A DNA stretch of 64,000 nt, from contig JACKFC010000017.1 in assembly GCA_020632665.1 (NCBI GenBank), positions 40,423 to 104,422 of the forward strand, written 5' to 3'. Of this stretch, positions 2,311-60,292 are shown in pieces. Origin of the DNA: Deltaproteobacteria bacterium. GTDB taxonomy: Bacteria > Myxococcota_A > UBA9042. Made by a program: the position numbers and the translations under genes. The notes under the pieces were generated by a model, which was not told the DNA's origin, did not search any database, and worked only from the letters and a program-made list of their open reading frames with translations. The first letter of the stretch is position 1. Every line of letters starts with the position of its first letter.

Positions 2311-3234
2311 ATGCTCTCACCGCCGCTCGCCCGCGCCCGCGCCACCGTCCTCGCCGTCGAAGCCACCACGCTCGGGCTCGCTGCCGGCGTGGCCTTGGCC
2401 TTGGCCATCGCCTTGATCTTGCGGCCGAGCGCCGCGATCCATCTGTTGCGGCCGGTCGCCACCCTCGGCGCCGCCGTGGCCACCCTCGGCGCGATGGGCA
2501 CGCTGCTGGCGCACAACCTGGGCCTCGGCGCGCGACGGGTCGTGGTGGAGGCCGATGCGGATGCACCTCCGGGGCCTCCGGCGACCGTGCCAGGAACCTA
2601 CCTCGCCGCCATCGGCGGGGCACTGCTCGCGGTTGGGCTCTTCCTCGCGTCGCGGGCGGCAGACGGCTCGGCTCTGGGCGCCAGCGAGGCCCGCGATCGC
2701 GCCATCCTCTGCGGACTGCTCGCGATCGCCCTGCAAGCGACGCTGAGTTGGCGCGCCTCCGCCGCGCTCGGGCCGTCGGCGACGCCCCTTGCCGAGCTGC
2801 TCCAGCCGAGCGCCGTCGCGTTGCTCGCGGGCTTCGGCCTGACCCTGGTGATCGGCCTGGTGGGCGAATCGATGACGGCCGAGCTCACCTACGAACTCGG
2901 CGCTGGCACGACGATGGCAGCGTTGTGGGCCACCGCGACGACGGGGCGGGTGATGCGCGGCGTGCGGCTGACCCTGCGCCGCGACCGCGAGCAGGGCGTC
3001 ACCGCACCGCCCGTGGAGCGCGCCCTTCGCCACGCTGCACTGGCCACGCTCGCCGGCGTTCTGGTCCCTGCGCTGGTGATCGCGGCCAACCTTGCGACGG
3101 CGCACCTCAACGGTGTCGTGCTCGCCGGAGCGGCGTTGATCGTGGTCGGGCACCCGCTCCGCTATGCGCTCGCGCTCTGCCGCCTCGATGCGCCCGAGGC
3201 TCCGCGTTGCAAATCGGGGCTCGCCCGGCTATGA
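2311..3234 (+). CDS. Polytopic membrane protein, hypothetical
   Basis: Internal ATG at residue 222 of the 1648..3234 ORF. Several hydrophobic Ala/Leu/Gly segments and high GC3. The upstream part of the track ORF is Arg-rich and non-protein-like. Confidence 0.55.
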   Translation: MLSPPLARARATVLAVEATTLGLAAGVALALAIALILRPSAAIHLLRPVATLGAAVATLGAMGTLLAHNLGLGARRVVVEADADAPPGPPATVPGTYLAAIGGALLAVGLFLASRAADGSALGASEARDRAILCGLLAIALQATLSWRASAALGPSATPLAELLQPSAVALLAGFGLTLVIGLVGESMTAELTYELGAGTTMAALWATATTGRVMRGVRLTLRRDREQGVTAPPVERALRHAALATLAGVLVPALVIAANLATAHLNGVVLAGAALIVVGHPLRYALALCRLDAPEAPRCKSGLARL

Positions 3235-3333
3235 CACGGCCTGCAACTTCGATGTCGCGCTCCCCCACGGCGGCGGAATCGCGCATCGGCTGACGCGGCT
3301 CGCGCGCACGAGCGGCGACGAGGGCGGGGGCGG

Positions 3334-5385
3334 ATGCAGCGCAAGTGCCCCGAGTGCGGCCTGGATACGGACGAACTCACCTGTCCCAACGACGGTGAGA
3401 TGACGCTCGTCATCAAGGAAGTCAGGAAGGCCGACAATATGGTCGGTCAAGTCATCGGCGGTCGGTACCGCGTCGAAAAGATCATCGGTCAAGGTGGCTT
3501 CGGCGCCGTCTACATGGCGCAGCACACCGCCACCGGCGATACCCTCGCGATCAAGGTCCTGCGGACCGACGTCGAAGGCGCCTCCGATGTCGTCGCCCGC
3601 TTCCGTCAGGAAGCCAAGGCCACCAGTCGGCTCAAGCATCCGAATACGGTGCGCGTCTTCGACTTCGGTCAGATGGACGACGGCAACCTCTTCTTGGCGA
3701 TGGAATTCCTCGACGGCAAGACGTTGACCGACGTGATGCGCGCCGAGGGCCCGCTGGCGCCGGAGCGCTTGGTCAAGATCGGCGTCCAGGTGCTGAAGTC
3801 GCTCTCCGAGGCGCACAGCAAGGGCCTGGTCCACCGCGATCTGAAGCCGGACAATATCTTCATCCAGAATATCCACGGCGAGCCGGATTTCGTCCGCGTC
3901 CTCGACTTCGGCATCGCCAAGTCGCTGGCCACCGATACCGAAGATCTGACCTCGACCGGCGCGGTGATCGGCACGCCGAAGTATATGTCGCCCGAGCAGG
4001 CGCGCGGCCAATCGGTCGACGCCCGGACGGATATCTACTCGCTGGGCGTGATCCTCTTCGAGGGCATCTCCGGTACGCCGCCCTTCATGGCCGAGACGCC
4101 GCTCGCGATGATCCTCCGCCGCGTGACCGAAGAGCCGCCGCGGGTCCACGACAGCATCGCGCGGCCAACTCCGATCGGCCTCTGCGACGTGGTGCTGAAG
4201 TCACTCTCGCGCCGGCTCGAAGAGCGATACGCCTCTGCGGACGAGTTCGCCGAGGCCCTGCAGTCCGCGCTCGACACGCCTGTCGCCTTGCCGGGCGGCG
4301 GCGTCAGCGCACCGGCCGGCGGCGCGGTCGGCGGCAGCACCGCCGCGTACGGCTCGCTTCCTGCCGGGGGCGACGAGACCGTCGACGTCTCGTCCGAGCA
4401 GGTTGCCGCGCTGACGGGCAATTCTTCGCAAGTCTTCGTCCACGGCGGTGCCGGCGACGACGACGCCACCTTCGAGGCGACCGCGGAGCAGATGGCCGCC
4501 GCGGCCGGCGGAGCGGACGTCACGATCCGCACCGAGACCGACGGACCGGCGACGATCGTCACGCCCGCGACCGCACCGCCCGCATCGCCGCCACCGGGGG
4601 GCGCCAGCGCCGCGCCGTCCTCAGCCCCGGCAGCGAAGGCGGGCTCTGCAGCGAAGGCGGGCCCAGCTGCGCCGCAGTCCAAGCCGAGCGAGCCGGTCCC
4701 GGTGGCCAGCAGAACGCCGTCGAGCCCTGCCCCCGCGGTCGGCGGCAACTCCGACAACAAGATGCCGCTCTACATCGGCGGCGGCATCGGCGTGCTGGTC
4801 TTGGTCCTGATGATCGTGATGATGTCGCGGCCGCAGCAGGTCGTCATCGCGCAGGGGCAGCTCACGTCGAGCGGTCAGGTCGTCGCGATGCAGCAACAGC
4901 AGGTCGCGCAGCAAGCTCCGCCGACGCCCGCGCCCGCGCCCGAGCCCAAACCGGAGCCCAAGCCCGAGCCGAAGCCCGAGCCGAAGCCCGAGCCGAAGCC
5001 TGAACTTGCCGCGGCCCCAGCACAGCAGCAGTCGACGATCGTGCTCGTCCGGGAGCCGGCGTCCGCCGCGGTGACCATCGACGGCAGCGCCATCGTCGGC
5101 GACAAGACGATCTTGCCGCCGGGTAAGCACAAGGTCGAAGCCTCCGCCTCCGGCTACGAGGGTTGGAGCGCCGAGGTCGAGGTCGCCGCTGGGCAGACGG
5201 AGGTCGTGCGCTTCGAGCTGCAGAAGAAGGCGCGCGCGCCGGTCCGCCGTCCGTCTGGTGGTGGTGGGGGTGGGACGAAGTCTGCTCCGGATCCGGTCGT
5301 GAAGGCCCCCGATCCGGTCAAGAAGCCACCGGAGAAGAAGCCGCCAGAGAAGAAGCCGCCGCCCGGTGGCCTGCTGATCGACTAG
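3334..5385 (+). CDS. Hanks-type Ser/Thr protein kinase with an N-terminal Cys4 zinc ribbon, a transmembrane (TM) helix and a C-terminal PEGA-like domain
   Basis: Kinase motifs: GQGGFGAVY, AIKVL, HRDLKPDN, DFG and GTPKYMSPE. N-terminal CPECG...CPNDG. TM segment MPLYIGGGIGVLVLVLMIVMM. Extracellular PEPK x6 and PPEKK repeats. PEGA-like block VTIDGSAIVGDKTILPPGKHKVEASASGYEGW. Confidence 0.9.
   Translation: MQRKCPECGLDTDELTCPNDGEMTLVIKEVRKADNMVGQVIGGRYRVEKIIGQGGFGAVYMAQHTATGDTLAIKVLRTDVEGASDVVARFRQEAKATSRLKHPNTVRVFDFGQMDDGNLFLAMEFLDGKTLTDVMRAEGPLAPERLVKIGVQVLKSLSEAHSKGLVHRDLKPDNIFIQNIHGEPDFVRVLDFGIAKSLATDTEDLTSTGAVIGTPKYMSPEQARGQSVDARTDIYSLGVILFEGISGTPPFMAETPLAMILRRVTEEPPRVHDSIARPTPIGLCDVVLKSLSRRLEERYASADEFAEALQSALDTPVALPGGGVSAPAGGAVGGSTAAYGSLPAGGDETVDVSSEQVAALTGNSSQVFVHGGAGDDDATFEATAEQMAAAAGGADVTIRTETDGPATIVTPATAPPASPPPGGASAAPSSAPAAKAGSAAKAGPAAPQSKPSEPVPVASRTPSSPAPAVGGNSDNKMPLYIGGGIGVLVLVLMIVMMSRPQQVVIAQGQLTSSGQVVAMQQQQVAQQAPPTPAPAPEPKPEPKPEPKPEPKPEPKPELAAAPAQQQSTIVLVREPASAAVTIDGSAIVGDKTILPPGKHKVEASASGYEGWSAEVEVAAGQTEVVRFELQKKARAPVRRPSGGGGGGTKSAPDPVVKAPDPVKKPPEKKPPEKKPPPGGLLID
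4936..5003 (+). repeat. Coding 12-bp microsatellite, about 5.5 copies, encoding the (PEPK)n linker
   Basis: cccgagccgaag-type units repeat directly at 12-bp periodicity inside the kinase ectodomain. Confidence 0.6.
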
Positions 5386-5535
5386 CACATCGCGCTGCGC
5401 AGCGACGGAGCCGCCGCATCCGGCAGCCATCCGCGAAATAGGCGACGCCCCGAGGTTGAGCCTCGGCACGCCGTTCGTTAGCATCCGCTCTCCAGACCCG
5501 GACGCGACGCACGCGATCCATCGGAGGCGAGTCCC

Positions 5536-6591
5536 ATGCCTGGCCGCGGCTTCTCACCGATCCATCTACGACGCCTGCTCGGTGTCGCACTTTGCGGGGC
5601 GCTCGCGCTCGCCGTCGCCCCGGCGACGGTTCACGCTGACGCTGCGGAAGAGTCGCTCGAACTCGCCCGTGCTGGCGCAGGCCACTTCAAGGAGAAGCGC
5701 TACATCGAGGCAGCGCGCGCCTTCGAGTCGGCCTACCGGACCAACCCCGTCGATCCGCGCAACCTCCGCTACGCTGGTCGCGCCTGGGAGGAGGTCGGCG
5801 TCATCGACCGCGCGATCAGCCTCTTCGAGCGCTACCTTCAGGTCGAGAGCAACCCGGAGTATCGGCAGTCGATCGTGCCGCGTCTCGACAAGCTGAAGGC
5901 GACGACCGAGAAGGAGCGCGCTGAAGCGCTCGCGATGGCGACGATCAAATATCCGCAGGGCCGGCTCGAGGAAGAAGCCGCGCAGGCCTTCGAGCGGATC
6001 GGCGACAAGGCGAGCCTCGAGCGCGCCATCAAGCTCTACGAGACCTCCCGCCTCTGGGCCGAGACGCCGGAGGCGAAGGCCAAAGTCGACGCCAACATCA
6101 ACCGCGTCCGCCAGCGGATTCAGGACCTCGACAAGCCGAAGGACCCGAAGGGGCCGACCGGCCCGACTGGCCCGGTGAAGCCGGAAGAGCCGAAGAGCGA
6201 TACGATGGGCATGATCCTGTACGTCGCCGGTGGCGTCGCGCTGGTCGCAGGTGGCGGCCTCGGCGGCTACGGCTACCTCTCCTACGATCAGGCGCTGCAG
6301 GACAACGACGCCGGCAAGTTTGCCACCAAGGCGGCCTACGATTCGGCGACCGAGTCGGCGCGCTCGATGAACCGCGCCGGCTACGGACTCGCCGCCGTCG
6401 GCGTCGGCGTGCTCGGCTGGGCCGTGGTCCGTTCGGTGCTCTCGGGCGGAAACGACAAGGCCGCCGCACCCAAGGCCGACGGTGAGGGCGACGCGCCCGC
6501 CGACAAGGCCGAGGACAAGGATTCGAGCTTCTTCCTGCAGCCGCGACTCGATCGCGACGGCGCCGGCTTCGTGCTCGGCGGCCGCTTCTAG
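5536..6591 (+). CDS. Signal-peptide TPR-like protein with a C-terminal membrane anchor
   Basis: N-terminal LLGVALCGALALAVAPATVHA. Helical TPR-like repeats. A C-terminal hydrophobic stretch ILYVAGGVALVAGGGLGG. GGAGG ribosome-binding site before the ATG. Confidence 0.6.
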   Translation: MPGRGFSPIHLRRLLGVALCGALALAVAPATVHADAAEESLELARAGAGHFKEKRYIEAARAFESAYRTNPVDPRNLRYAGRAWEEVGVIDRAISLFERYLQVESNPEYRQSIVPRLDKLKATTEKERAEALAMATIKYPQGRLEEEAAQAFERIGDKASLERAIKLYETSRLWAETPEAKAKVDANINRVRQRIQDLDKPKDPKGPTGPTGPVKPEEPKSDTMGMILYVAGGVALVAGGGLGGYGYLSYDQALQDNDAGKFATKAAYDSATESARSMNRAGYGLAAVGVGVLGWAVVRSVLSGGNDKAAAPKADGEGDAPADKAEDKDSSFFLQPRLDRDGAGFVLGGRF

Positions 6592-6602
6592 GGGGCCTCC
6601 AG

Positions 6603-9600
6603 ATGACCTTCTCCAAGCGTTTGTTTGCCCCCGCTCGCCTCGCGCGCTTCGGCCCGCTCTGGGCGGCCGCGCTGCTCGCGACCTCGGGCTGCGTCCCCGG
6701 TGCCACCGACGTCCCGGATTGGAACAAGGGCTCGGTCGGAGGCGGCGGCGCCGTCTGCGGCAACGGCAGCTGTGAGGCCGGCGAGACCGAGAATTCCTGC
6801 TCGGTCGACTGTACTGGAGTCTCCGCCGAGTGCGGCAACGGCAAATGCGAGCCCGGCGAAAGCGCGACGACCTGCAAGACCGATTGCGCGGTCGGCGGCA
6901 AGGTCTGCGGCGACGGAACCTGCGAGGGCGAAGAGACCTTCGTCTCCTGCCCGTCGGACTGCAAGCCGAAGTGCAAAGACCCGATTGTCGACTGCGGCGA
7001 GCACGCCAACTCCTGCAAGAAGTACGTCTGCGGGCAGAACGGTGAGTGCGAAGAGGCCAAGCTCGACGACAACACGCCCTGCGACGACGGCAACAAATGC
7101 ACCACCGAGGAGCGCTGCGAGAACGGCGAGTGCAAGGGCGGCAAGGAGCCGGATTGCGACGACGGCGACGCCTGCACGGCCGATGATTGCGACGCCGCGA
7201 ACGGCACCTGCACCAACGTCGCCGTGGCAGACGGCACCACGTGCCCGGCCGGCGGGCCCTGCGAGGGCAACAACCAATGCCAAGCCGGCCAGTGCAAGCC
7301 GACGGTCTGGAAATGCGAGTGCGACGCGAGCAAGCCCAACGACGACGCACAATACGGCTGCGCGAAGAAGAGCCCGGCGAATAAGTGCAACGGCGTCTCG
7401 ACCTGCGTCATCAACGACGACAGCAAGAAGCACGAGTGCGTCATCCCCGAGAGCACCAAGGTCACCTGTGACAGCAGCCTCGACACCGACTGCAGCACCC
7501 ACGTCTGCAATCCGCAGAAGGGCGCTTGCGAGTTCAAGGCCAAGCCGAACAACACGCTCTGCGACGACGGCAGCAACTGCACCAGCGGCGACACCTGCTT
7601 CGGCGGCGAATGCATCCCCGGCACGATGATCTGCGAGTGCGATATCGTGAACTTCAAGTCGCAGTGCGAGAAGAAGTACCAGGGCACCGCGGGGCCTTGC
7701 TCCGGACAATTCTATTGCGCCAACCCCGCCGCCGGCCCCTATGCCGCTGGCGCGACCTCGGAAGAGAAGGCGGCCAAGACGCACTGCGAGATCAACCCCG
7801 CCACCGTCATCAATTGCGAGAGCAAGGACGACACGGCCTGCTCGGTCAACACCTGCGTGGTCGACGGCAACGACGGCGGCTGCAAGATGGTGCCGGAGAA
7901 GGTCGGCAAGCTCTGCGACGACGGCGCCGAGTGCACCCCGAACTCGGCCTGCAACGCGGCTGGGCTCTGCTCGCCGGCGCTCTCCGACTCGCCGCCGTGC
8001 GATGAAAAGGGCCAGTGCTCCAAGGCCGGCACCGTCTGCCAGGACGGCTTCTGCGTCACCAATACCTGCGTCTGCCAGGAGGACGCCGACTGCGCCGCGA
8101 AGGACGACGGTGACCTCTGCAACGGCACCATGTTCTGCAACCAAGCGACCGGCGCTTGCGAGCTGAACAAAGCGACCATCGTCAACTGCGCGAGCTTGAG
8201 CGACACCGCTTGCGTGGTGAATATCTGCTACCCGAAGCTCGGCGTGTGCAAGCTGACGCCGCGTGAGAACGTGTTCAAGGAGACGATCACCGACCCGAAG
8301 ACGCAGGCGGTGAAGGTCTCGGTCAAGCCCTACCCGGTGAAGAAGGTCGACGTCTTCTGCGACGACGGCAACACCTGCACCCCGGTCGACGAATGCGACA
8401 AGGGCGTCTGCGTCTCCGACGACACCAATACCTGCGGCTGCCAGAAGGACAGCGACTGCGCCGGCCAGGAAGATGGCAACGTCTGCAACGGCACGATGTA
8501 TTGCGACAAACTCGCGTCCGGCGGACCCAAGTGCAAAGTCAACCCGGCGACGGTGGTCACCTGCATCGGCGTCGACGACACCGTCTGCGCGCAGAATGTC
8601 TGTGATCCGAAGACCGGTTCCTGCAAGGTCACGCCGGTCAAGGGCACGGTCCTCTGTGACGACGGCAACCCCTGTACACCGAACGACTTCTGCAACGCCA
8701 AGGGGCAGTGCAGCCCAGTCGGCGCAGACGCCAAGGCGTGCGGCGCCGGCGGCAGCTGCCCGATCGGCTATTCCTGCTTCGACGGCAAGTGTGCGACCAA
8801 CGTCTGCCAATGCAGCCAGGACAGCGACTGCGCCAGCAAGGAAGACGGCAACGTCTGCAACGGCACGCTCTACTGCGACAAGGCCACCGGCGCCTGCAAG
8901 GTCAACCCCGCCACCATCGTCAGCTGCAGCGACACCGAGGATTCGACCTGCTTGGCCAACCAATGCAACAAGGCGACCGGCGCCTGCGCGATGACGCCGA
9001 TCAACAACAACAAGCTCTGCGACGACGGCAATCCGTGCTCGGCGACGCCAATTTGCGAGAACGGTGTCTGCAAGGCCGAGACCGAGATCTGCGTCTGCAC
9101 CACCGACGCCGACTGCGCGCCGCTGCAGAGCAAGAACCTCTGCGCCGGCACGCTCTACTGCAAGAAGGGTGCGACCGCCGAGCAGAACACCTGCGCCGTC
9201 AATCCGGGGTCCGTCACGGTGTGTCCGTCCGGCGACGACACGGCCTGCATGCGCAACCAATGCGACGCGAAGACCGGAAAATGCGCCATGGTCAACAAGC
9301 CGGACAACGTCGTACTCTGCGACGACGGCAACCCCTGCACCAGCGGTGATAGCTGCGTCGCCGGTGCGTGCGCGGCTGGCACCAATATCTGCGAGTGCGC
9401 CACCGACGCCGATTGCGCTTCAAAGGATGACGGCAACGCCTGCAACGGCACGCTCTTCTGCGACAAGACGGGCGCGACCAATGTCTGCAAGACCAAGCCC
9501 GGCTCGATCCCGACCTGCAACCCGACCGCGACGGGCAGCTGCTTGGTCGAGAAGTGCATCCCGGCGACCGGCAAATGCGAGAAGATCAGCGCCTCGATCT

Positions 9601-10535
9601 GCAACGACGGCAACAGCTGCACGGTCGACTACTGCGATCTCGGCACCGACAAATGCGCGGTGAAGTCCGTTCCGGATGGCTCGGGTTGTGCCAGCCTCGG
9701 CAACTCCGGTGTCTGCGTCGCGACGTCCGCCTCCGCCTCGGACTGCAGCGTGCAGCCGCAGGCGGAGATGGTCTTCGTGCCGAAGGGCGACTTCCAGCAA
9801 GGCTGCAGCGCCACCGAGGGCGGAGCCTGCCAAGCGGCCGAGCTGCCGCAACACGAGGTCAAGCTCAGCGGCCACTGGATGGACCGCTTCGAGGTGTCCG
9901 TCGCGCGCTACTCTGCCTGCGTCGTCGCCGGTGTCTGCAAGGCCCCCGCGATGACCGGCACCTCCTGCAACTACGGCGACACCTCCAAGCTGCAGCAGCC
10001 CGTCAACTGCGTCAGCCACGCCGAGGCGGTCGCATATTGCACGTGGTATGGCGAAAATAGCGCGGCCGGCAAGAAGACCGGTCGCTTGCCGACCGAGGCC
10101 GAGTGGGAGCGCGCCGCGCGCGGTGGTTGCGAGAACTTCAGCGACTGCAAGACCGAGACGTCGACCTACGTCTGGGGAGACGCGCCGACGCCGAGCTGCG
10201 CGATGGCGATCATGAACGACGGCGGTGGCAAGGGTTGCGACGGCACCGCACCCGCGGATATCGCGTCCAAGCCGGATACGGATCGCAGCGTCTACGACGT
10301 CTACGATCTCGCCGGAAACCTCTCGGAGTGGGTCCAGGACACGTTCTCTGCCAGCTACTACGGAACGCTCGCGAACCCGGCCACCGACCCGGTGAACAGC
10401 GCCGCGGGCAGCACCAAGACCGTTCGCGGCGGCAGCTACGCCAGCACCAAGGCGACCGACCTGCGTGCGGCGGCGCGTGCGTCGGCGAGCGCCGCGTCGG
10501 CCTCTATCGGCTTCCGTTGCGTGATCGTGCCGTAG
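6603..10535 (+). CDS. Giant lipoprotein, 1310 aa: about 20 Myxococcus-type Cys-rich repeats plus a C-terminal formylglycine-generating-enzyme/sulfatase-modifying (FGE-sulfatase) domain
   Basis: Lipobox-like ATSGC. Reiterated CDDGNxCTxxDxCxxGxC modules. The C-terminus reads RLPTEAEWERAARGG...YVWGD...GNLSEWVQD...RGGSY...FRCV, which matches the FGE-sulfatase fold. Confidence 0.85.
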   Translation: MTFSKRLFAPARLARFGPLWAAALLATSGCVPGATDVPDWNKGSVGGGGAVCGNGSCEAGETENSCSVDCTGVSAECGNGKCEPGESATTCKTDCAVGGKVCGDGTCEGEETFVSCPSDCKPKCKDPIVDCGEHANSCKKYVCGQNGECEEAKLDDNTPCDDGNKCTTEERCENGECKGGKEPDCDDGDACTADDCDAANGTCTNVAVADGTTCPAGGPCEGNNQCQAGQCKPTVWKCECDASKPNDDAQYGCAKKSPANKCNGVSTCVINDDSKKHECVIPESTKVTCDSSLDTDCSTHVCNPQKGACEFKAKPNNTLCDDGSNCTSGDTCFGGECIPGTMICECDIVNFKSQCEKKYQGTAGPCSGQFYCANPAAGPYAAGATSEEKAAKTHCEINPATVINCESKDDTACSVNTCVVDGNDGGCKMVPEKVGKLCDDGAECTPNSACNAAGLCSPALSDSPPCDEKGQCSKAGTVCQDGFCVTNTCVCQEDADCAAKDDGDLCNGTMFCNQATGACELNKATIVNCASLSDTACVVNICYPKLGVCKLTPRENVFKETITDPKTQAVKVSVKPYPVKKVDVFCDDGNTCTPVDECDKGVCVSDDTNTCGCQKDSDCAGQEDGNVCNGTMYCDKLASGGPKCKVNPATVVTCIGVDDTVCAQNVCDPKTGSCKVTPVKGTVLCDDGNPCTPNDFCNAKGQCSPVGADAKACGAGGSCPIGYSCFDGKCATNVCQCSQDSDCASKEDGNVCNGTLYCDKATGACKVNPATIVSCSDTEDSTCLANQCNKATGACAMTPINNNKLCDDGNPCSATPICENGVCKAETEICVCTTDADCAPLQSKNLCAGTLYCKKGATAEQNTCAVNPGSVTVCPSGDDTACMRNQCDAKTGKCAMVNKPDNVVLCDDGNPCTSGDSCVAGACAAGTNICECATDADCASKDDGNACNGTLFCDKTGATNVCKTKPGSIPTCNPTATGSCLVEKCIPATGKCEKISASICNDGNSCTVDYCDLGTDKCAVKSVPDGSGCASLGNSGVCVATSASASDCSVQPQAEMVFVPKGDFQQGCSATEGGACQAAELPQHEVKLSGHWMDRFEVSVARYSACVVAGVCKAPAMTGTSCNYGDTSKLQQPVNCVSHAEAVAYCTWYGENSAAGKKTGRLPTEAEWERAARGGCENFSDCKTETSTYVWGDAPTPSCAMAIMNDGGGKGCDGTAPADIASKPDTDRSVYDVYDLAGNLSEWVQDTFSASYYGTLANPATDPVNSAAGSTKTVRGGSYASTKATDLRAAARASASAASASIGFRCVIVP

Positions 10536-10575
10536 CACGGCGAGCCCCCGACGCGGGGCGAGGGAGGAGGGCCGA

Positions 10576-13500
10576 ATGAACGCGCACGTTCGCTTGCAGG
10601 CCCGCGGCTCGACCCGCGTCGCCCTCTTCGTCGCGGCGCTCACGCTCCTCTCCGCCACCGACGCCTGGGCCGCCTTCTGCACCGGCAAGCAGAACGGCCT
10701 TTGGTGCGACGGCGACAAGCTCGTCTACTGCAGCAACGGCAACGTCAGCAGCAGCCAGACGTGCAGCAACGGCTGCCAATCGATGCCGCCCGGTACGCCC
10801 GACCAGTGCAAGGCGGCGACCGGCTTCTGCGCCGGCAAGGCCAGCGGCTATTGGTGCGACGGCAGCAAGCTGGTGCTGTGCAAATCCGGCAACATCAGCA
10901 GCAGCCAGAGCTGTCCGAACGGCTGCCAGTCGATGCCCTCGGGCACCGACGACAAGTGCAAGGAAGCGACCAATTTCTGCACTGGCAAGGCGAGTGGTCA
11001 GTGGTGCGACGGCAGCAAGTTGGTCCTTTGCAAATCGGGCAACATCAGCAGCAGCCAGAACTGTCCGAACGGCTGCCAGTCGATGCCCTCGGGCACCGAC
11101 GACAAGTGCAAGGAAGCGACCAATTTCTGCACCGGCAAGGCGAGCGGTCAGTGGTGCGACGGCAGCAAGTTGGTCCTTTGTAAGTCGGGCAACATCAGCA
11201 GCAGCCAGAACTGTCCGAACGGCTGCCAGTCGATGCCCTCGGGCACCGACGACAAGTGCAAGGAAGCGACGAATTTCTGCACCGGCAAGGCCAGCGGTCA
11301 GTGGTGCGACGGCAGCAAGTTGGTGCTGTGCAAATCCGGCAGCATCGCGAGCAGCCAGAATTGCCCGAACGGCTGCCAATCCAATCCCGCCGGGACCGAC
11401 GACACCTGCAAGGCGGCGACTTCCTTCTGCACCGGCAAGCAGAACGGCGCTTGGTGCGACGGCGACAAGTTGGTCCAATGCCAGAACGGCGCTGTCAGCA
11501 GCAGCCAGACCTGCGCCAACGGCTGCCAATCGATGCCGGTCGGCGTCCCCGATCAGTGCAAAGCGACCGGCGGCACGGGCTTCTGCGCCGGCAAGCAGAA
11601 CGGCCTCTGGTGCGACGGCGACGCGCTGGTCAACTGCCAGAACAACAGCGTCGCCAGCAGCCAGACCTGCAGCAACGGCTGCCAATCCATGCCGGTCGGC
11701 GTCGCCGATCAATGCGCTCCGAGCTCCGGTGGCGGCGGCGGCACTGGCGGCAAGTTGGAGCTCTGCAATCCCTTCAACCCCGCCAAAGCCGTGACCTGCG
11801 GCTTCGGCTGCTACAGCGGCCACAAGGGCAGCGACTACGCCTGCGGCGACGGCACGCCGCTCTACGCTCCGACGAACGGCACCGTCACCAAGGTCGTCAA
11901 CAGCTACAACGGGCAGACCTGCTCGCCGGACTTCGGCAACCTCATCAAGATCGCGACGGGCCCCTACGAGATCATCCTCGCCCACATGCGCAAGGACATC
12001 CTGGTCGGCGCGGGTGAGATCCAAGCCGGCACGCCGATCGGCTATGCCTCCAATACCGGCTACACCCTCACGCAGAAGAACGGCACCTGGGTCTGCCAAC
12101 AGGGCGGCGGCCACCACCTGCACCTCGAGGTCCGCAAGAACGGCGTCGCGGTCGACGCCTACGGCGGTGAGGTCGTCTGGAAGAACTGCGGTGACATCGG
12201 CAACGGCGGCGGCGGCGGGACCACGACTTTCTGTACCGGCAAGCAAAACGGCCTGTGGTGCGACGGCAGCGCGCTGGTCGACTGCAAGGACGGCGCGGTG
12301 GCGAGTAGCCAAACCTGCAGCAACGGCTGCGAGTCGATGCCGGTCGGCGTGCCGGATCAGTGCAAATCCGGCGGCGGCACCGGCTTCTGCAGCGGCAAGC
12401 AGAACGGCGCCTGGTGCGATGGCGACAAGCTCGTGACCTGCAGCGGCGGTTCGATCAGCGCCAGCGAGACCTGCGCCGACGGCTGCGAGTCGATGCCGGT
12501 CGGTGTCCCCGACCAATGCAAGGCCAAGCCGGTGACAGGGCCGTGCGAGGGCGTGCAAAACGCCGCGCTCTGCCACCAGGACGCCGTCGTGATCTGCGTC
12601 GCGGGGGCCGTGCAGCAGACCATCACCTGCCAGTTCGGATGCGTCGACAAGGCCGGTGTCGTCCACTGCAACGAGCCCGCCGCACCCGAGCCATGCGCCG
12701 GCAAGGGCGACGGCGCGAGCTGCGAAGGCGACGTGCTCCGCCAATGCCAATCCGGCAAGACCGCGAGCGCCACGCCCTGTGCCTTCGGCTGCGGCGTGGT
12801 CGGCGGCAATGCGCTCTGCCTGGCCAAGCCCGCACCGGCCGATCCCTGCGCCGGCCTCGCCGACGGCGGCCATTGCGAAGCGGCTTCGCTGCGGACCTGC
12901 CAATCCGGGCAAACCGTCGGCGCCATCACCTGCAACTTCGGCTGTGCCGGAGCGCCAGGGCAGGGCGCCTGCGCGCTCCCCGGCGGCCAAGGGCCGTGCC
13001 AGGGCAAGCCGGACGGTTGGCATTGCGACGGCAGCAAGCGGCTGCGCTGTGCGGCCGGCGCGCTCGCCGAACAAGAGCTCTGCGCCTTCGGCTGCGGCAC
13101 CTTCGCCGGACAGGTCGGCTGCCTCGGCGTCGAAGGCGCAGCGTGCGCGGCCAAGGTCGATGGCGGCGTCTGCCAGGGCGAGCTCCTGCTCGGCTGTGCC
13201 GCGGGACAGGTGCAATCGGCCACCCTTTGCATGCAAGGCTGTGTCGCCGACGGTGCGGCACATTGCGCTGCGGCCGCGGGCGTCTGTGCCGATAAGGTCG
13301 ACGGCGCCTGGTGCGACGCCGGCGCCCTGGTGCACTGCCTGAGCCAGTCCGAAGTCAGCGTCGAGATCTGCAAATTCGGCTGCCTACCGACCCCCGGACC
13401 GGTCGCCGACGTCTGCGCTTCGGCGAAAGACGCGAGCTGCTTCGGCAAGGCCGACGGCACGTGGTGCGACGCCGGGGCCAAGATCGTCTGCAGCGGCGGC

Positions 13501-14649
13501 GTCGAGACCGAACGGGTCGCCTGCGCCCTGGGCTGCCAGGGGCCTGCGGGCCAGGCGAGCTGCTCCGCTGCGGCGGCGTCGAGTTGCGCCGAGCTCGAAG
13601 ACGGGACGCATTGCGCGGGATCCGCCGTGGTCGCTTGCGTCTCCGGCGAGACCACGCTGGTCGCGCCTTGCGTCAACGGCTGCGAGGTCGACCCCGTGCT
13701 CGGGCCGCGCTGCATCAAGGCCGAAGCCGCGGGCTCGGCGATCGCCGTCACCGTCGACGAGGCCGGCTGCGCCCAGGTCGTCGGCTCACTGCTCCTCGGT
13801 GACGTCGCGCACCAGAGCCAGCTCGGCTCCGACGTCGCCATCGGCGCCTGCTCCGACCGTACGATCGCCAGCCACGGCGCGCTCATCACCGCGCTCTCGA
13901 CGGCCTACGCCGCGTTGGGCGCGCCACGAGAGGCGCTCGGCGTGGTCGGCAACACACCGCCGCTGGAGAACCTCTGGCGCAACGAGAACGACGGTTACGC
14001 CGCCTGTGCCGAAGCCGGTGTGTGCTGCGCGCGATGGGATCGCAACCCGGATCCGGTCGCCTTCGACCTCGGCAGCGGCTTCGACGGGGCCTGCCTGCCG
14101 CCTGAGTTGGCCCTGCGCGTCGCCGCGTCGCTGGCCGCCGGTCGCCCCGTGGTCGCCGGCATCCACCCGATCGGCAACCCGCCCGGCGCGCACTTCGTGA
14201 CGATCGTCGGCGTCGGCGAAGGCGGCTGGCAGGTCCTCGACCCGAAGGGAGACGCCGCCCCGGTCGCGCTCGCCGCCATCGCCGCCGTCGAACACGTCCT
14301 CGATTTCGTCGCGATCCCGCGCCTGGACGGAGCCCCGAACGCGGCGTTGTCGCCCAGCGGCGCCGGCGGCCCGCTCCCCGGCGGACCAGGGCGGAACCAT
14401 CCGTCGAGTGGCGCCGACGCGGGCGGCGGCGCGACGGGCGACGCGACCGGCGACGCGACCGGCACGATGGGCGGCGACGCCGGGCTCGACGCGGCTTCGG
14501 ACGGTGCTTGGCAACCGGCGGCCGCACCGAGCGGCTGCAGCGCCTCTCCGGTCCGGGGACGCCTGACGACCGCGCCCTGGGCCTGGCTGACGACGTTGAT
14601 CGCCGCGGCGTGGGCCCTTTGTTTCGCGTTGCGCCGCCGCTCGACTTGA
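10576..14649 (+). CDS. Giant surface protein, 1357 aa: signal peptide, seven 50-aa Cys repeats, M23 (LytM) metallopeptidase domain, two further repeat families, a possible papain-like (C39-like) domain, and MYXO-CTERM
   Basis: Signal peptide LFVAALTLLSATDAWA. M23 motifs HKGSDYA and GGHHLHLEV. C-terminal GCSASPVRGRLTTAPWAWLTTLIAAAWALCFALRRRST fits the MYXO-CTERM pattern (Cys motif, TM helix, Arg tail). The possible papain-like segment is GCAQVVGSLLLG...AHFVTIVGVGEGGWQVLDP. Confidence 0.85.
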   Translation: MNAHVRLQARGSTRVALFVAALTLLSATDAWAAFCTGKQNGLWCDGDKLVYCSNGNVSSSQTCSNGCQSMPPGTPDQCKAATGFCAGKASGYWCDGSKLVLCKSGNISSSQSCPNGCQSMPSGTDDKCKEATNFCTGKASGQWCDGSKLVLCKSGNISSSQNCPNGCQSMPSGTDDKCKEATNFCTGKASGQWCDGSKLVLCKSGNISSSQNCPNGCQSMPSGTDDKCKEATNFCTGKASGQWCDGSKLVLCKSGSIASSQNCPNGCQSNPAGTDDTCKAATSFCTGKQNGAWCDGDKLVQCQNGAVSSSQTCANGCQSMPVGVPDQCKATGGTGFCAGKQNGLWCDGDALVNCQNNSVASSQTCSNGCQSMPVGVADQCAPSSGGGGGTGGKLELCNPFNPAKAVTCGFGCYSGHKGSDYACGDGTPLYAPTNGTVTKVVNSYNGQTCSPDFGNLIKIATGPYEIILAHMRKDILVGAGEIQAGTPIGYASNTGYTLTQKNGTWVCQQGGGHHLHLEVRKNGVAVDAYGGEVVWKNCGDIGNGGGGGTTTFCTGKQNGLWCDGSALVDCKDGAVASSQTCSNGCESMPVGVPDQCKSGGGTGFCSGKQNGAWCDGDKLVTCSGGSISASETCADGCESMPVGVPDQCKAKPVTGPCEGVQNAALCHQDAVVICVAGAVQQTITCQFGCVDKAGVVHCNEPAAPEPCAGKGDGASCEGDVLRQCQSGKTASATPCAFGCGVVGGNALCLAKPAPADPCAGLADGGHCEAASLRTCQSGQTVGAITCNFGCAGAPGQGACALPGGQGPCQGKPDGWHCDGSKRLRCAAGALAEQELCAFGCGTFAGQVGCLGVEGAACAAKVDGGVCQGELLLGCAAGQVQSATLCMQGCVADGAAHCAAAAGVCADKVDGAWCDAGALVHCLSQSEVSVEICKFGCLPTPGPVADVCASAKDASCFGKADGTWCDAGAKIVCSGGVETERVACALGCQGPAGQASCSAAAASSCAELEDGTHCAGSAVVACVSGETTLVAPCVNGCEVDPVLGPRCIKAEAAGSAIAVTVDEAGCAQVVGSLLLGDVAHQSQLGSDVAIGACSDRTIASHGALITALSTAYAALGAPREALGVVGNTPPLENLWRNENDGYAACAEAGVCCARWDRNPDPVAFDLGSGFDGACLPPELALRVAASLAAGRPVVAGIHPIGNPPGAHFVTIVGVGEGGWQVLDPKGDAAPVALAAIAAVEHVLDFVAIPRLDGAPNAALSPSGAGGPLPGGPGRNHPSSGADAGGGATGDATGDATGTMGGDAGLDAASDGAWQPAAAPSGCSASPVRGRLTTAPWAWLTTLIAAAWALCFALRRRST
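10675..11574 (+). repeat. Six in-frame tandem 150-bp coding repeats; the three copies at 10825-11274 are about 90-97% identical
   Basis: The TTCTGC (FC) codon recurs every 150 bp at 10675, 10825, 10975, 11125, 11275 and 11425. The copies at 10975 and 11125 differ by about 5 nt. Confidence 0.8.
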
Positions 14650-14660
14650 TGCGAGGGCAC

Positions 14661-14682
14661 GGGCCGCCTACCTTGGCGGCCC
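14661..14682 (+). other. Intergenic stem-loop GGGCCGCC-tacctt-GGCGGCCC immediately before the ccmE-like ribosome-binding site
   Basis: Perfect 8-bp stem with a 6-nt loop and no U tract. It is followed by AGGAGG and then the ATG at 14695. Confidence 0.3.
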
Positions 14683-14694
14683 AGGAGGTCGCGC

Positions 14695-15219
14695 ATGGCC
14701 GAGCACGTCGAACACCTCAGCACCACCGCCGTCCCGCAGCGCAAGCGCGCCTCGGTGGCGCCGCTGGTCATCGCGGTCGCCGTCGCGGCGATCGGCTTCT
14801 TCGTGATCACCTCGAGCACTTCGGGTGGCTCGGGGATGTTCAACTACGAGTTGGCGGATCTGGTGCAGAAGAAGGCCGAGCTCGCGGGCAAGGACATCAA
14901 GGTCTCGGGCCGCATCGCCAAGGGCAGCGTCCGCGGCGAGCCGGCGAGCGCGTCGTTCCGCTTCGAGCTCGAAGACGACGGCGGCAACCGCGTCTCGGTC
15001 GCCTATACCAAGCTGCTGCCCGATCCCTTCGAAGAGGGCCGGGACGCCATCGTCCAGGGCCGCATGGAGGGCGACACCGTCGTGGCGTCGAGCCTCACGG
15101 TGAAGTGCCCGAGCCGCTACGCCGATACCGAGAATCTCAGCGAGGCGGAGAAGCAACGCTACTACGAGAGCGACTACCGCAAGCACGCCGAGATGGCGAA
15201 AGAAGCCCCGAAACAATAG
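14695..15219 (+). CDS. ccmE: CcmE-family haem chaperone, CxxxY variant, with an N-terminal membrane anchor
   Basis: The OB-fold core VSGRIAKGSVRG...SFRFEL.DDGGNRVSVAYTKLLPDPFEEGRDAIVQGRME aligns with CcmE VxYxGxLPDxFxEGxxVVQG. Where canonical CcmE has LAKHDENYTP, this protein has VKCPSRYAD, so the haem-binding His is replaced by Cys. Confidence 0.8.
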   Translation: MAEHVEHLSTTAVPQRKRASVAPLVIAVAVAAIGFFVITSSTSGGSGMFNYELADLVQKKAELAGKDIKVSGRIAKGSVRGEPASASFRFELEDDGGNRVSVAYTKLLPDPFEEGRDAIVQGRMEGDTVVASSLTVKCPSRYADTENLSEAEKQRYYESDYRKHAEMAKEAPKQ

Positions 15220-15220
15220 C

Positions 15221-15691
15221 TCAGGGGGCGGTCTCTTCGGCAGCGGCGCAATCACCGGCATCGAGGACCTGCAGCGCTTCCTGCCGCTCGATCCGGACCA
15301 AGCCGTAGCCGTAGAGCGGCTCGCTGCCGCCGATGTCGAATGCGCAGCGGATGCCGACGCGGGTCACGTCTGGCCCCAGCTCCAGGTGGATCGGCATCGT
15401 CGCTTCCGGAGCGCTGCCACGCGCGAAGATCCGCTCGACGACGAAGGGCGTCTCGGCGGTCGGGACGCTCAGGCGCAGCCCGATCAGGCGGTCGCGTCCG
15501 AGCGTCGCGTCGCCTTCGTGCCGCTCGAGATGGGTCAGCAGCAGCGACGCCTTCGCGCCCACCACGTCGCGCCGGACCGAGGCCCACGCCGCGAGCAGCC
15601 CGGCGATCAGGCCGACGATGCCCAGCGGCCGTCGCCACCGCTCTGGGATCAGTCGAGGGATTGCCACGCCCGTTGCTCCTTGGCGGCCCAC
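15221..15691 (-). CDS. Membrane-anchored (single N-terminal TM) hypothetical protein, last gene of the LonN-ABC-ABC operon
   Basis: GTG start. RRPLGIVGLIAGLLAAWASV TM helix followed by about 115 aa. GC3 is high. The 5' end overlaps the upstream ABC gene by 43 nt. Confidence 0.45.
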   Translation of the reverse strand: MGRQGATGVAIPRLIPERWRRPLGIVGLIAGLLAAWASVRRDVVGAKASLLLTHLERHEGDATLGRDRLIGLRLSVPTAETPFVVERIFARGSAPEATMPIHLELGPDVTRVGIRCAFDIGGSEPLYGYGLVRIERQEALQVLDAGDCAAAEETAP

Positions 15692-52675: not shown

Positions 52676-55600
52676 TTAGGGCGTGAACGTATAGATGACG
52701 ATCTCGCGCTTGCCGGATCCGTTTTGCCCCTCGGCGACGAGGCTCCAACTGTCCCCTAGCCAAACCGCTTGAGCGGCACCTCTCCAGGCAAGACCGGGCC
52801 GCGGGTCGCCGGATTCCATGAGGTCGGTTGACCACGAGCTCGGTGTCAGCAGGTCCGCTGGCTTGACGGCTCCGTCGGCACTCACAGTGAAATACGAGTG
52901 CACGCCAGGGTAGTGCAGGGTGCCCGTATTCATCGTTACGAGCGCTGCACCACCCTTTCCGGCCACGACGCGGGCTCCGAGGATACCTGACGAGCAGCTC
53001 CCCGGGGTCTTGCTGCCTTGCGTGAACACCTGCTTCGCCGTCCAGGTGCCCCCGGGCTTGCCGCGGGCCAGCCAGAGGCTGTCGCTCGACGCTCCTCGGG
53101 TCACGATCGCGACGACCGCTTCGCCCTTGTCCGCGTCCCAGGCGGCATCCAGGGTACAGACCGCCGTCGCGCCGCCGAGAACCGTCGCGCCGGCACCGCT
53201 GCTCCCGGAGGCGAGCCAGGATGCCGGAGTGTCGTCGGTGCCCTTCGCATCCAGCGGGAGGGCCCACAACTCCCGAGTGTACGATCCGGATTTGTTCTTT
53301 TCACCCAACGCGAGGACCCAGAACCGCGCCTTGTTGGCGTCTTCCGCGCCCATGTCGATCACGACCGGGTGGACGGTCGAAAAGGCTCCGAGGAGCGTGC
53401 TGCCGTTGATTGACGGCGAGCCAACGACCCCACCGAATGCCAGGACGTTGCTCGCCGGCGTCACGAGGTCATCCACCTTCGGTCGCGCGAAGATGGCGCC
53501 CCGCTTGCTCGGATCCGTCGACGCTCCGCCAAGGACCGCGAAGCCGGGCGTCATGAACGCCGGCTTGTCGCCACCATCGAGCGGGCAGGTGGTGCCAGCG
53601 ACGGCGCTCCAGGAACCTCCGGAGGTCACGGCCCCACCGTCGAGCCGCGCCAGCCGGGCGATGCCGCCCCGGCCGAAGTTGTCGAGGCAGATCGGCGAGC
53701 CGCCCACGCCGGCTTCGAGCCAGGTCAGCCACGCCTGCGAGCTGGACTCGGGATCGACGGCGACCGCCGGGAACGCCGCCGCGGCTCCGGCGCCGACGAC
53801 GTGGTTGGCGAAGGTGATGACCGCCGGCTTCGGCTTGGTGTCGCCGGGCTTGGCCGCGATGGCCGGGTCGAGCACGACCGCGCGCAGCTTGCTCGGCTGG
53901 TTGATCGCCCACGTCGGGTCGCCGAACTTCTCCGGATCCCCTCCGAGCGAGGGCTTGACGACGGTCGCCGCCGCCTGGCTCTGGTAGACCACCCACAACC
54001 GGTGGCGTCCCGTCTTGGCGTCGAGGACGTGCCGAATCGCGACCGGGTTGGTCGGCGCCGGGTCGTCCGCGCTCTCGCTGACCAGCACCACGGGCTTCGG
54101 CGTCAGGCAGGCCTTGGCGGTGCCGTCGCAGCTGTGGCCGTAGGGGCAATCGTCGACGAAGGCGCAGCCGGTCTTGCTGTCGGCCCAGGCGGTGCCGGGG
54201 TCGCAGGCGTCGACGGTGCAGGGCAGCCCGTCGTCGCAGGCTCCGGCGATGATCTCGTGCTTGCAGGCGCCCGCGGCGGAGCAGGTGTCCTTGGTGCAGC
54301 TCGCGCCGTCGTCGACGCAGCTCGAACCGGCCGCGGCGAGGGTCCAGGCGCTCTGCGACGCGCTCGGCGTGCAGCTCTGGCAGCCCGCTTGCTGCATGGT
54401 GCCCTCGTCGACGCAGGCGCCGTCGATGACGCAGCTCTTGCTGCCGATCGTGAGCTTGCAGCTACCGCCGGCGCATTGCTCGGTCGTGCAGGCGAGGCCG
54501 TCGGTGGTGCAGTCGGCGCTGTTGTTGACGAAGGCGCAGCCGGTCTTGGCCTCACCAGTGGCGCCGGCGCAGGTGTCGCCGGTGCAGACGTTGCCGTCGT
54601 CGCAGGCCGAGTCCACGGCCTTGTGGACGCAGCCGGTGTCGACGGCACCGGCCTTGGGGTCGCAGCTGTCGATGGTGCAGGAGAGGTCGTCGTCGCAGGC
54701 GGCGTCGCTCGGGACCTGCTTTTTGTCGCAGGCGCCAGCGCCGTCGCAATGCTCGGTGGTGCAGGAGAGGCCGTCGTCGCCCTCGCAGGTCGCGCTGGTC
54801 GGCAGCGGCACCGTCTTGCAGCCCTTGACCGCCTCGGCGTCGCAGCTGCCCTTGACGCAGGGGCCGTCCTTGTCCTTGCAGGCGGCGTCGTCGGCAGTCG
54901 CGACGCAGGCGCCCTTGCCGTCGCAGGCGTCGACCGTGCAGGCGATATCGTCGGCCTTGCAGGGCTCGCCGGCGGCGATCGGGGTCCACTTGTCCTGAAC
55001 GATGGTGGCGGCGCAGCGCTGGCAGGGCGCATTCGGGTCGGCATCGCCGTCGGCGATGCAGGTCCCGCTGCCGCCGTCGCCGGCGATGAAGCAGAAGCCG
55101 GCGCTGATCCCCTCGATGACGCACGAGCCCGCCTTGCACGCGCCCGGGCGGCAGGTCGCGCCGTCTTCGCTGCACGTCGTGCCGTCGGCCTTATCCGACC
55201 AGGCTTCCTTCGCCGAGATCGGATCGCAAACCTTGCAGCCCGCGCTGCCGTCCGCTGCGTCGCCGGTTTTGCGGCATTTTCCGTCGATCACGCAGAAGCC
55301 GGTGGCGATGCCGGCAGGCTGGCAGGTGCCGCTGCCGTTGCAGGCGCCCTGGGTGCAGGATAGGCCGTCGGCGTCGTCGCAGCCCGCACCGTTCGGCTTG
55401 TCCGTCCATTTGCGCGGGTCGATGCTCGGGATGCAGGCCTGGCAGCCGTTGCTCGGGTTGTTGGCGTCCGCGGCGACGCAGCTCTTGCTGCCGTTGTCGT
55501 CGATCAGGCAGGTATCGGCCGTCAGGTTCGCGGCGACCGTGCACTCGCCCTCGGCGTCGCACGCGCCGAGGGTGCAGGCGATGCCGTCGCCGTCCTCACA

Positions 55601-60018: not shown

Positions 60019-60047
60019 GGCCCACTCCAGCACGAGGAGGCCGCAGG

Positions 60048-60263
60048 ATGACATGGATCGGGTGGGTCGTCGCCCTCTCCAGCCTGAGCCTGGTGCTGCG
60101 CCTGACGGTGCGGTGGTGGAACCGGGTCGAGCGGATCCCGCCCGCCGCGCAGCGCCCGCCGCCCGAGCCCTGGCCGGAGGACGAGCCCGAAGATCCCGAC
60201 GCCGATTGGCCGCAACAGCCGAGCGATTTTCTTGCGGAGTCCGAGGATCGCGAGGGATCCTGA
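60048..60263 (+). CDS. Small membrane protein, 71 aa, with an acidic Pro-rich tail
   Basis: One TM segment WIGWVVALSSLSLVLRL. Immediately upstream of the TSP3 giant gene. Confidence 0.35.
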   Translation: MTWIGWVVALSSLSLVLRLTVRWWNRVERIPPAAQRPPPEPWPEDEPEDPDADWPQQPSDFLAESEDREGS

Positions 60264-60292
60264 ATCAGGTTCTACCGTCGCGGAGTTCGGAT

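Follow-up and report, generated by a model that had tools for sequence, protein, structure and literature searches.

The window analysed here is a 64,000-nt stretch of a Deltaproteobacteria bacterium genome (Myxococcota_A; GenBank assembly GCA_020632665.1, contig JACKFC010000017.1, positions 40,423 to 104,422 of the forward strand). It contains a run of plus-strand genes for a Ser/Thr kinase, a tetratricopeptide repeat (TPR) protein, a giant lipoprotein that ends in a domain related to formylglycine-generating enzyme (FGE), and a giant protein with an M23 peptidase domain. Here we describe this locus, compare it with related loci and consider how its proteins may be related in function.

Each of the four open reading frames (ORFs) is the longest in its region, and their GC content at third codon positions (GC3) is 0.85–0.88, in a part of the window with ~64–74% GC. 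They encode the kinase (683 aa, 3334–5385), the TPR protein (351 aa, 5536–6591), the lipoprotein (1310 aa, 6603–10535; identical to NCBI MCB9739587.1) and the M23 protein (1357 aa, 10576–14649; identical to MCB9739588.1). These positions agree with a preliminary description of the locus made from its sequence, as do the intergenic gaps of 150 nt (kinase–TPR) and 40 nt (lipoprotein–M23); the TPR–lipoprotein gap measures 11 nt and not the 12 nt reported there. Co-directional genes at short gaps are commonplace. The same description limited the locus to these four genes, all of which were recovered, but the run continues on both sides. A polytopic membrane-protein gene at ~2311–3234 on the plus strand, recognized from its translation and with its start placed where orthologue matches begin, stops 99 nt 5' of the kinase gene; its product has no Pfam or PADLOC match. 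On the other side, the ccmE gene for a haem chaperone (14695–15219; PF03100, 75.9 bits) starts 45 nt after the M23 gene on the same strand. The co-directional run is one of six genes rather than four, and the four-gene boundary is arbitrary.

Related loci (L003–L030) were retrieved by exact look-up, a scan of genome collections and a scan of metagenomes, and were compared with the window by tblastn and ORF reading. In the 150-nt spacer between the kinase and TPR genes, a promoter-like motif (TTGAGC-N17-TAGCAT, 5456–5484, plus strand) lies 51 nt upstream of the TPR start codon. Its counterparts in L006 (TTGAGA-N17-TAGCAT) and L004 (TTGAGC-N17-TATGGT) keep the 17-nt spacing within spacers that have otherwise diverged, giving the pattern TTGAG[CA]-N17-TA[GT][CG][AG]T across the three sequences. 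Conservation in three orthologous spacers suggests that the downstream genes have a promoter of their own, and hints that the motif could be an internal promoter for the TPR, lipoprotein, M23 and ccmE genes. A consensus scan of positions 2900–15600 returned no promoters and found terminator-like hairpins at chance level, a scan that is uninformative at this GC content.

The kinase and the TPR protein

The kinase domain spans aa 45–315 and matches Pkinase (PF00069) over aa 45–260 with 166.8 bits, against a cut-off of 31.7. All of the catalytic motifs are present: GQGGFG (52–57), AIK (72–74), HRDLKPDN (167–174), DFG (191–193) and SPE (219–221). A single transmembrane (TM) segment at aa 477–497, followed by PEPK repeats, separates the kinase domain from a PEGA domain at aa 574–632. 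The PEGA match (PF08308) passes its cut-off by a narrow margin (23.7 bits vs 20.8), and the region is conserved in orthologues, whose kinase domains are 50–96% identical to that of the window. The gene product is, as judged from its sequence, an active-looking receptor-type Hanks Ser/Thr kinase with a predicted cytoplasmic catalytic domain and a predicted periplasmic PEGA domain, which upholds the preliminary description of a membrane kinase with an extracellular PEGA domain.

Both ends of the kinase carry short motifs that recur among the orthologues with readable ends, to which this comparison was confined. The N-terminal motif, CxxC-x10-CPxDG (aa 5–21; 3346–3396), resembles a zinc ribbon and recurs down to 56% identity (L026). 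The C-terminal motif, GLLID (5368–5382), is on the predicted periplasmic side and recurs in L004, L009, L011 and L025.

The second protein scores below the cut-offs of the Pfam TPR models (TPR_9, 23.2 vs 35; TPR_19, 19.8 vs 25). An AlphaFold2 (AF2) model built with 10 homologues has a predicted local distance difference test (pLDDT) score of 76.5 overall and above 90 over nine helices (aa 36–199), and a Foldseek search with this model matched CTPR, MamA and OGT TPR structures with a probability of 1.0. We are therefore confident in assigning a TPR fold, an assignment based on the predicted structure. The preliminary description had called the protein TPR-like and anchored, and its choice of fold is borne out by the model although not by the Pfam hidden Markov models (HMMs). 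The protein starts with a signal peptide, and the TPR region is followed by a linker, a helical hairpin (aa 223–302) and a C-terminal beta-hairpin ending in Phe. The helical hairpin contains Gly-rich TM segments at 224–248 and 282–298 and is predicted to be a membrane hairpin. A loop of the protein that includes Tyr268 is conserved.

Homologues of the TPR protein are scarce and come only from metagenomes and metagenome-assembled genomes; a profile search against 1.84 billion representatives yielded ~28 full-length clusters at 50% identity. Nearly every full-length member of the family has a terminal Phe after a short beta-hairpin (LGGRF, GGSF, LAGHF, ALQF; 6574–6588 in the window). This ending recalls the beta-signal of outer-membrane proteins, although the helical hairpin is predicted to place the protein in the inner membrane. 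In L014 (4650–5894), the linker of the TPR orthologue has one inserted Cys repeat (CAEKLDGPWCADDKTLITC...) like those of the M23 protein encoded nearby, and this similarity suggests that such repeats are mobile among the proteins of the locus.

Conservation of gene order

Synteny was examined in about 20 metagenomic loci. The main clade consists of the window, L003, L004, L006–L011, L014–L016, L022 and L023, and in those of its loci that are long enough the gene order is a divergent gene, the membrane-protein gene, the kinase, TPR and lipoprotein genes, the M23 gene or none, and ccmE, followed on the opposite strand by genes for a Lon-N domain protein and adenosine deaminase. Kinase, TPR and lipoprotein genes occur in this order in 10 of the 10 loci that are long enough (the window, L003, L004, L006–L010, L014 and L015), and the gap between the TPR and lipoprotein genes ranges from 11 to 90 nt across the clade. 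No main-block locus of sufficient length lacks the lipoprotein gene, which was found nowhere else. The upstream membrane-protein gene is syntenic in L006–L010, but no such gene precedes the kinase in L025.

At least four unrelated contexts have the kinase gene next to the TPR gene, and both gene orders occur among them. In L025, the kinase and TPR genes come, in this order, after mreB and another ORF of no assigned identity, convergent frr and pyrH genes lie downstream, and no lipoprotein, M23 or ccmE gene stands beside the pair. The order is also kinase then TPR in L027 and in L005, where ParA-like and calpain-like genes are found upstream and the two genes are 7 nt apart. L012 and L026 have the opposite order, in which the TPR gene precedes the kinase gene at gaps of 14–19 nt. 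Adjacency that persists through four contexts and an inversion is a standard mark of a functional pair. Because this adjacency survives several contexts and both orders, and nothing comparable was found for the lipoprotein or the M23 protein, the evolutionarily stable partner of the kinase is, on the evidence of gene order, the TPR protein and not the FGE-domain protein.

The M23 gene is more variable. It is present in five of the seven informative loci (the window, L006, L008, L014 and L015) and overlaps the lipoprotein gene in L014; in L007 and L010 it is absent, and ccmE comes right after the lipoprotein gene. A tree built from the kinase domains by neighbour joining places L014 and L015 at its base and pairs L007 with L008 as sisters. 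Since both basal loci carry the M23 gene, the tree implies that it was ancestral to the main block and was lost at least twice. We had considered a recent insertion of the M23 gene in the closest relatives of the window, and withdrew this idea because of its presence in L014 and L015. Elsewhere, M23 homologues with 35–40% identity (L017–L019) lie among unrelated genes and have neither kinase nor FGE neighbours.

Conserved synteny across relatives had been named in the preliminary description as a check on the four-gene grouping, and the outcome is divided. The kinase–TPR–lipoprotein order is kept within one clade, but M23 was lost twice, L025 has neither giant gene, and the flanking ccmE, Lon-N and adenosine deaminase genes are as syntenic in the main clade as the genes between them, so synteny singles out no module.

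The cysteine-rich giant proteins

The signal sequence of the lipoprotein ends in LLATSG-C30, which resembles a lipobox when read by eye, and orthologues keep a Cys at this site (LSAC, AAGC, VVGC, TSAC, LGAC, LLNC). The protein contains 151 Cys, 137 of them in a stalk of ~1000 aa made up of modules of ~100–125 aa. No Pfam family matches the stalk above threshold (Dicty_CTDC is sub-threshold), and neither the Myxo_disulf_rpt model (TIGR02232), a check proposed in the preliminary description, nor any other NCBIfam model matched the N-terminal 299 aa of the stalk at E ≤ 10. Likewise, searches of Pfam and NCBIfam with the stalk modules and with isolated Cys repeats from both giant proteins found nothing above threshold.

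At the C-terminus of the lipoprotein, aa 1054–1307 (9762–10523) match FGE-sulfatase (PF03781) with 147.7 bits, so that the description of a 1310-aa Cys-repeat lipoprotein ending in this domain holds. Matches to FGEs in the PDB have E-values of 3e-18 to 2e-15. True FGEs bind copper through a pair of active-site Cys (C-x4-C). In an alignment to the Thermomonospora curvata FGE, both are replaced in the window protein ('LCHESYCNRY' to 'ASTK--ATDL'), and the pair is also absent in six of the six orthologues checked. Because both catalytic Cys are replaced in all seven sequences, the domain is, by its sequence, not a formylglycine-generating enzyme and is best described as a putative non-catalytic binding head with a C-type-lectin fold. 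Models for EgtB, SenA and OvoA score 27–54 bits on the domain, against cut-offs of 360–420, and no DinB-type iron-binding domain was found in the lipoprotein. The name of MCB9739587.1 at NCBI, 'SUMF1/EgtB/PvdO family nonheme iron enzyme', is thus probably misleading. A non-catalytic domain of this type would fit a binding or sensor-type role.

PorK/GldK and GldJ are non-catalytic lipoproteins with the FGE fold that belong to the type IX secretion system (T9SS) and gliding machinery. The window protein resembles them in being a lipoprotein with this fold; GldK is its best NCBIfam match (E = 4e-25), and PorK is among the PDB matches. It differs in the 1000-aa Cys-rich stalk that precedes the domain. 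Membership of the PorK/GldK family was ruled out by a TIGR03525 score of 89 bits, against a cut-off of 350, and by the lack of T9SS genes among the flanking genes examined.

The closest relatives of the FGE-like domain are short stand-alone proteins with 33–43% identity. When the domain alone was searched against 5.8 billion proteins, no Pkinase domain was present in the top 120 matches; a few of these are called 'kinase' by their JGI names, on fragments of 1–2 kb. Three of the nearest stand-alone homologues are on long contigs, and no Ser/Thr kinase is encoded within 6 kb of them. A close stand-alone homologue with TSP_3 and FGE-sulfatase domains (P0069, in L030, 2782–7275) lies directly 3' of genes for a histidine kinase and a sigma-54 response regulator, a single case.

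The M23 protein has a signal peptide followed by seven six-Cys repeats of 50 aa (aa 34–385), encoded by a 150-bp tandem array (10674–11693). Three copies in this array are identical at the protein level, and the consensus is FCxGKxxGxWCDGxxLVxCxxGxxxSSQxCxNGCQSMPxGxxDxC. The repeat has no Pfam or NCBIfam match. In the AF2 model each copy is a small three-stranded sheet with a pLDDT of 83–93; matches to M23 structures dominated the Foldseek results for the combined model, and the fold of the repeat was left unclassified. It is also common to a family of 750–880-aa C39_2/MYXO-CTERM proteins (P0028–P0053), and is probably an unclassified binding domain.

The peptidase domain (aa 415–527; 11818–12156) matches Peptidase_M23 (PF01551) with 51 bits, against a cut-off of 28.7. 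Its zinc ligands and catalytic His are intact in HKGSD (416–420), AHM (469–471) and HLH (514–516) and are invariant in 14 homologues. The model of the repeats with the M23 domain has a pLDDT of 81.5 and matches Csd1/2, LytM, ShyA and StM23 with a Foldseek probability of 1.0; by sequence, the domain comes closest to lytic enzymes of the LytU, zoocin A and LytM type. Past this domain, aa 552–1050 contain two more six-Cys repeats (12229–12540) and about nine degenerate four-Cys repeats. The protein ends with a C39_2-like domain (aa ~1060–1260; 13753–14355), a Gly/Asp linker and a Cys-containing sorting signal (aa 1316–1357; 14521–14646).

The C39_2-like domain, which the preliminary description had overlooked, scores 14.5 bits with PF13529 against a cut-off of 24, and its homology was established via P0045, a paralogue that scores 32.4 bits and aligns across the domain. 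In the window protein (SHGALITAL) and in the six related M23 proteins with this domain, Ala or Asp takes the place of the nucleophilic Cys, and L006 and L008 lack the catalytic His as well. Judging from these substitutions, the domain is a pseudo-peptidase. Paralogues without an M23 domain (P0028–P0053, YvpB-like) have six-Cys repeats, a C39_2-like domain and a sorting tail as does the window protein, which is 35–53% identical to P0045 over these parts, but they retain the nucleophile (SGCTITSL) and lack the M23 domain that is inserted among the repeats here. It looks as if the pseudo-enzyme was retained after the M23 domain was added.

A MYXO-CTERM signal has three parts, namely a short motif that contains an invariant Cys, a TM helix and an Arg-rich end, and proteins with it reach the cell surface (PMC11980579). 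The window tail did not match the corresponding model (TIGR03901), even when searched alone, although a synthetic control scored 32.6 bits. Against a cut-off of 20, orthologue tails score 28.7 (L006), 27.2 (L015) and 16.8 bits (L014), and the tail of paralogue P0031 scores 20.2. The window tail is tripartite, with SGCSAS, a 13-aa spacer, a hydrophobic stretch and RRRST, and every orthologue tail can be aligned to it over [SG]-C-[SA]-A...RRRR. On the strength of the orthologues, we regard the window tail as a divergent copy of a MYXO-CTERM-type signal. Thus, for the 1357-aa Cys-repeat protein proposed with M23 and MYXO-CTERM parts, the M23 assignment stands, and the sorting signal stands by layout and orthologue tails but not by the HMM on the window's own tail. 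The same is true of the HMM searches as a set, in which FGE-sulfatase and Peptidase_M23 were confirmed and neither Myxo_disulf_rpt nor, for the window tail, MYXO-CTERM was.

The M23 protein shares intact zinc ligands and catalytic His, and the fold of Csd, LytM and ShyA, with LytM/lysostaphin-type peptidases, and it shares the C-terminal Cys/TM/Arg-rich signal with myxosortase-dependent surface enzymes such as the NCBIfam 'myxosortase-dependent M36 metallopeptidase'. It differs from both in its 1357-aa architecture, with ~18 Cys repeats of a kind that Pfam does not cover, an insertion before the HxH motif and the degenerate C39_2-like domain, and from the MYXO-CTERM enzymes also in a tail that falls under the HMM threshold.

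Layers of the locus and alternative explanations

We interpret the locus as a vertically inherited string of core-genome genes with layers of different age, and not as one four-part machine: a kinase–TPR pair, a lipoprotein of one clade and an independent lysin. We estimate the probability of this interpretation at roughly 0.55. The first layer would be an old two-gene membrane signalling pair. The TPR protein is predicted to be periplasmic and held in the inner membrane via its helical hairpin, and could form a membrane complex with the kinase, in which the TPR and PEGA parts would take up an envelope or extracellular cue and the kinase would phosphorylate cytoplasmic targets. The second layer would be the clade-specific lipoprotein, probably co-transcribed with the TPR gene from the spacer promoter. 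Its most likely role is that of a binding protein at the surface or in the periplasm, in which a disulfide-rich stalk bears the FGE-like head, and it is a candidate co-receptor for the TPR/kinase pair in this clade. The third would be the M23 protein, a putative surface-tethered peptidoglycan endopeptidase from an expanded family of Cys-repeat surface hydrolases. This protein appears dispensable and probably acts on prey or on the cell's own wall independently of the kinase, with its pseudo-C39 domain and Cys repeats possibly serving as binding modules. The ccmE gene would merely be next in line.

Several observations weigh against this layered interpretation. The promoter-like motif agrees with the sigma-70 consensus at 8 of 12 positions, below the threshold of the consensus scanner, and the membrane topology of the TPR hairpin is a prediction. 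One locus, L013, has a TPR homologue without an adjoining kinase, the sole such case. The contigs of L005, L012, L026 and L027 end just after the pair, which leaves L025 as the one locus in which the absence of the lipoprotein outside the main block can be read. The links drawn between proteins of the locus all derive from gene order. The lipoprotein was never lost in the main block and its gene starts close behind the TPR gene, and a true three-part sensor would look alike. An ancestral M23 gene kept in five of seven informative loci may also have some functional tie to its neighbours.

The preliminary description saw all four genes as one signalling or attack module, in which the FGE-like head would be a detached kinase sensor and the M23 protein a regulated or co-operating surface effector. 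The gene order is ancestral to the main clade and is kept in the window, L006, L008, L014 and L015, the gaps are short, with overlapping lipoprotein and M23 genes in L014, and a TPR orthologue there has an inserted Cys repeat of the M23-protein type. The FGE-like domain is non-catalytic, as a sensor would be, and fusions of kinases to FGE-sulfatase (DUF323/NirV) domains are known, for example in chlamydial kinases (PMC1262709), as the description had stated. These fusions join the same two domain families, with an FGE-like domain presumed to be non-enzymatic, but in the window the domains are on separate proteins with one gene between them, the kinase has a PEGA ectodomain of its own, and the nearest relatives of the FGE domain stand alone, neither fused nor adjacent to kinases. 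Proximity of a kinase and an FGE domain is in itself unsurprising, because both families are hugely expanded in myxobacteria (360 kinases and 69 FGE-sulfatase members in Minicystis rosea; PMC8436480); as a rough estimate, it is expected by chance several times per genome. In addition, M23 was lost twice while the rest stayed intact and has homologues elsewhere with neither kinase nor FGE neighbours, the L025 pair occurs without either giant gene, ccmE and the housekeeping flanks are as syntenic and as closely spaced, and the conserved promoter-like motif parts the kinase from the other genes. A four-gene module therefore seems unlikely to us. The idea of the FGE domain as a split-off ligand sensor for the kinase has a non-catalytic domain and conserved order within the clade in its favour, and the TPR protein as the stable partner and the stand-alone FGE relatives against it.

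In a more elaborate form of this idea, the kinase, TPR protein and FGE-like lipoprotein would make up a trans-envelope receptor, equivalent to a kinase–FGE fusion split over three proteins. The head would detect a surface or prey ligand, the PEGA kinase would receive the signal through the TPR protein, and the M23 lysin would be a weapon that is deployed or monitored by feedback. The best functional analogy for a possible route from lipoprotein to TPR protein to kinase is GlnH–GlnX–PknG, an actinobacterial nutrient sensor and a precedent for a sensor split into a lipoprotein, a membrane protein and a Ser/Thr kinase (PMC6069109); no sequence relationship is to be expected. It too is an operon-encoded, split Hanks-kinase sensor with an exported lipoprotein binder, a relay membrane protein and a TPR element needed for coupling. 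However, PknG is soluble and has its own TPR domain, whereas the window kinase is membrane-bound with a PEGA domain and the TPR is on a separate, predicted periplasmic protein; GlnH is a small solute-binding protein in place of a 1310-aa Cys-rich FGE-like lipoprotein, and coupling in the window locus is our inference. We consider such a receptor improbable. If real, it would let an uncultured lineage of myxobacteria couple contact-dependent sensing to lysis.

It is also possible, if on the whole unlikely, that the two giant proteins form a surface pair, an N-lipidated lectin-like adhesin and a C-lipidated lysin used for prey contact and lysis or for remodelling of the cell wall or matrix, with an unrelated kinase–TPR pair that merely lies upstream. 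The two are alike in being giant, disulfide-rich exported proteins, and they have their lipid-anchor signals at opposite ends; the M23 domain has an intact active site and is closest in sequence to the LytU, zoocin A and LytM type, the cell surface is where MYXO-CTERM proteins go (PMC11980579), and the promoter-like motif is downstream of the kinase gene. However, this putative promoter precedes the TPR gene, and the 11-nt gap ties the lipoprotein to the TPR transcript. The lipoprotein also persists where M23 has been lost, and the surface location and substrate of the pair are predictions. An enzymatic role of the FGE-domain protein, which its public name suggests, for example in modifying a sulfatase or a secreted peptide, is very unlikely in our view. 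The strong PF03781 match, that name and PDB matches to FGEs at E-values of 1e-15 to 1e-18 agree with such a role, but both copper-binding Cys are replaced in the window protein and in all six orthologues, the EgtB, SenA and OvoA scores are far under their cut-offs, there is no DinB-type domain, and the domain tips a 1000-aa disulfide-rich lipoprotein stalk, as an exported binding head would.

We give almost no credence to a role of the kinase in anti-phage defence (PD-T4-6-like or MADS-like) or of the FGE-like domain as the target of a diversity-generating retroelement (DGR). The kinase scores up to 301 bits with the PADLOC model for PD-T4-6 and 222 bits with that for mad6. These matches are essentially only to the generic kinase domain (most to aa ~37–315), and the other four proteins have no defence match. 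Any Hanks-type kinase would be flagged by these models, and such matches are not evidence of defence. The NCBIfam scores for MAD6 (163 vs 460 bits) and PglW (95 vs 990 bits) are far below their cut-offs, and the locus is vertically syntenic among core housekeeping genes. The DGR variable protein TvpA (2y3c) is among the PDB matches of the FGE-like domain, but no second copy of 9701–10560 that could be a template repeat was found above noise in the 64-kb window.

Genomes of Myxococcota encode hundreds of orphan kinases each, and to our knowledge the activators of bacterial Hanks-type kinases are mostly unknown. A kinase/TPR pair that stays adjacent through rearrangements would thus be a testable two-protein receptor candidate in this phylum. 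The analysis also corrects what are likely annotation errors, in that a 'nonheme iron enzyme' appears to be a non-catalytic head and the M23 protein hides a putative pseudo-C39 domain, and it flags an unclassified 50-aa six-Cys repeat in a family of surface hydrolases.

The remaining genes of the window are core housekeeping genes, including those for the Lon-N domain protein, adenosine deaminase, ClpB, RNase J, LepA, an SLT transglycosylase and oligopeptidase M3. Two further large ORFs are present. One, on the minus strand (52676–55906), encodes a 1076-aa protein without any Pfam match. The other, on the plus strand at 59717–64000, runs past the end of the window and encodes at least 1427 aa with bacterial TSP3 repeats (224.7 bits).

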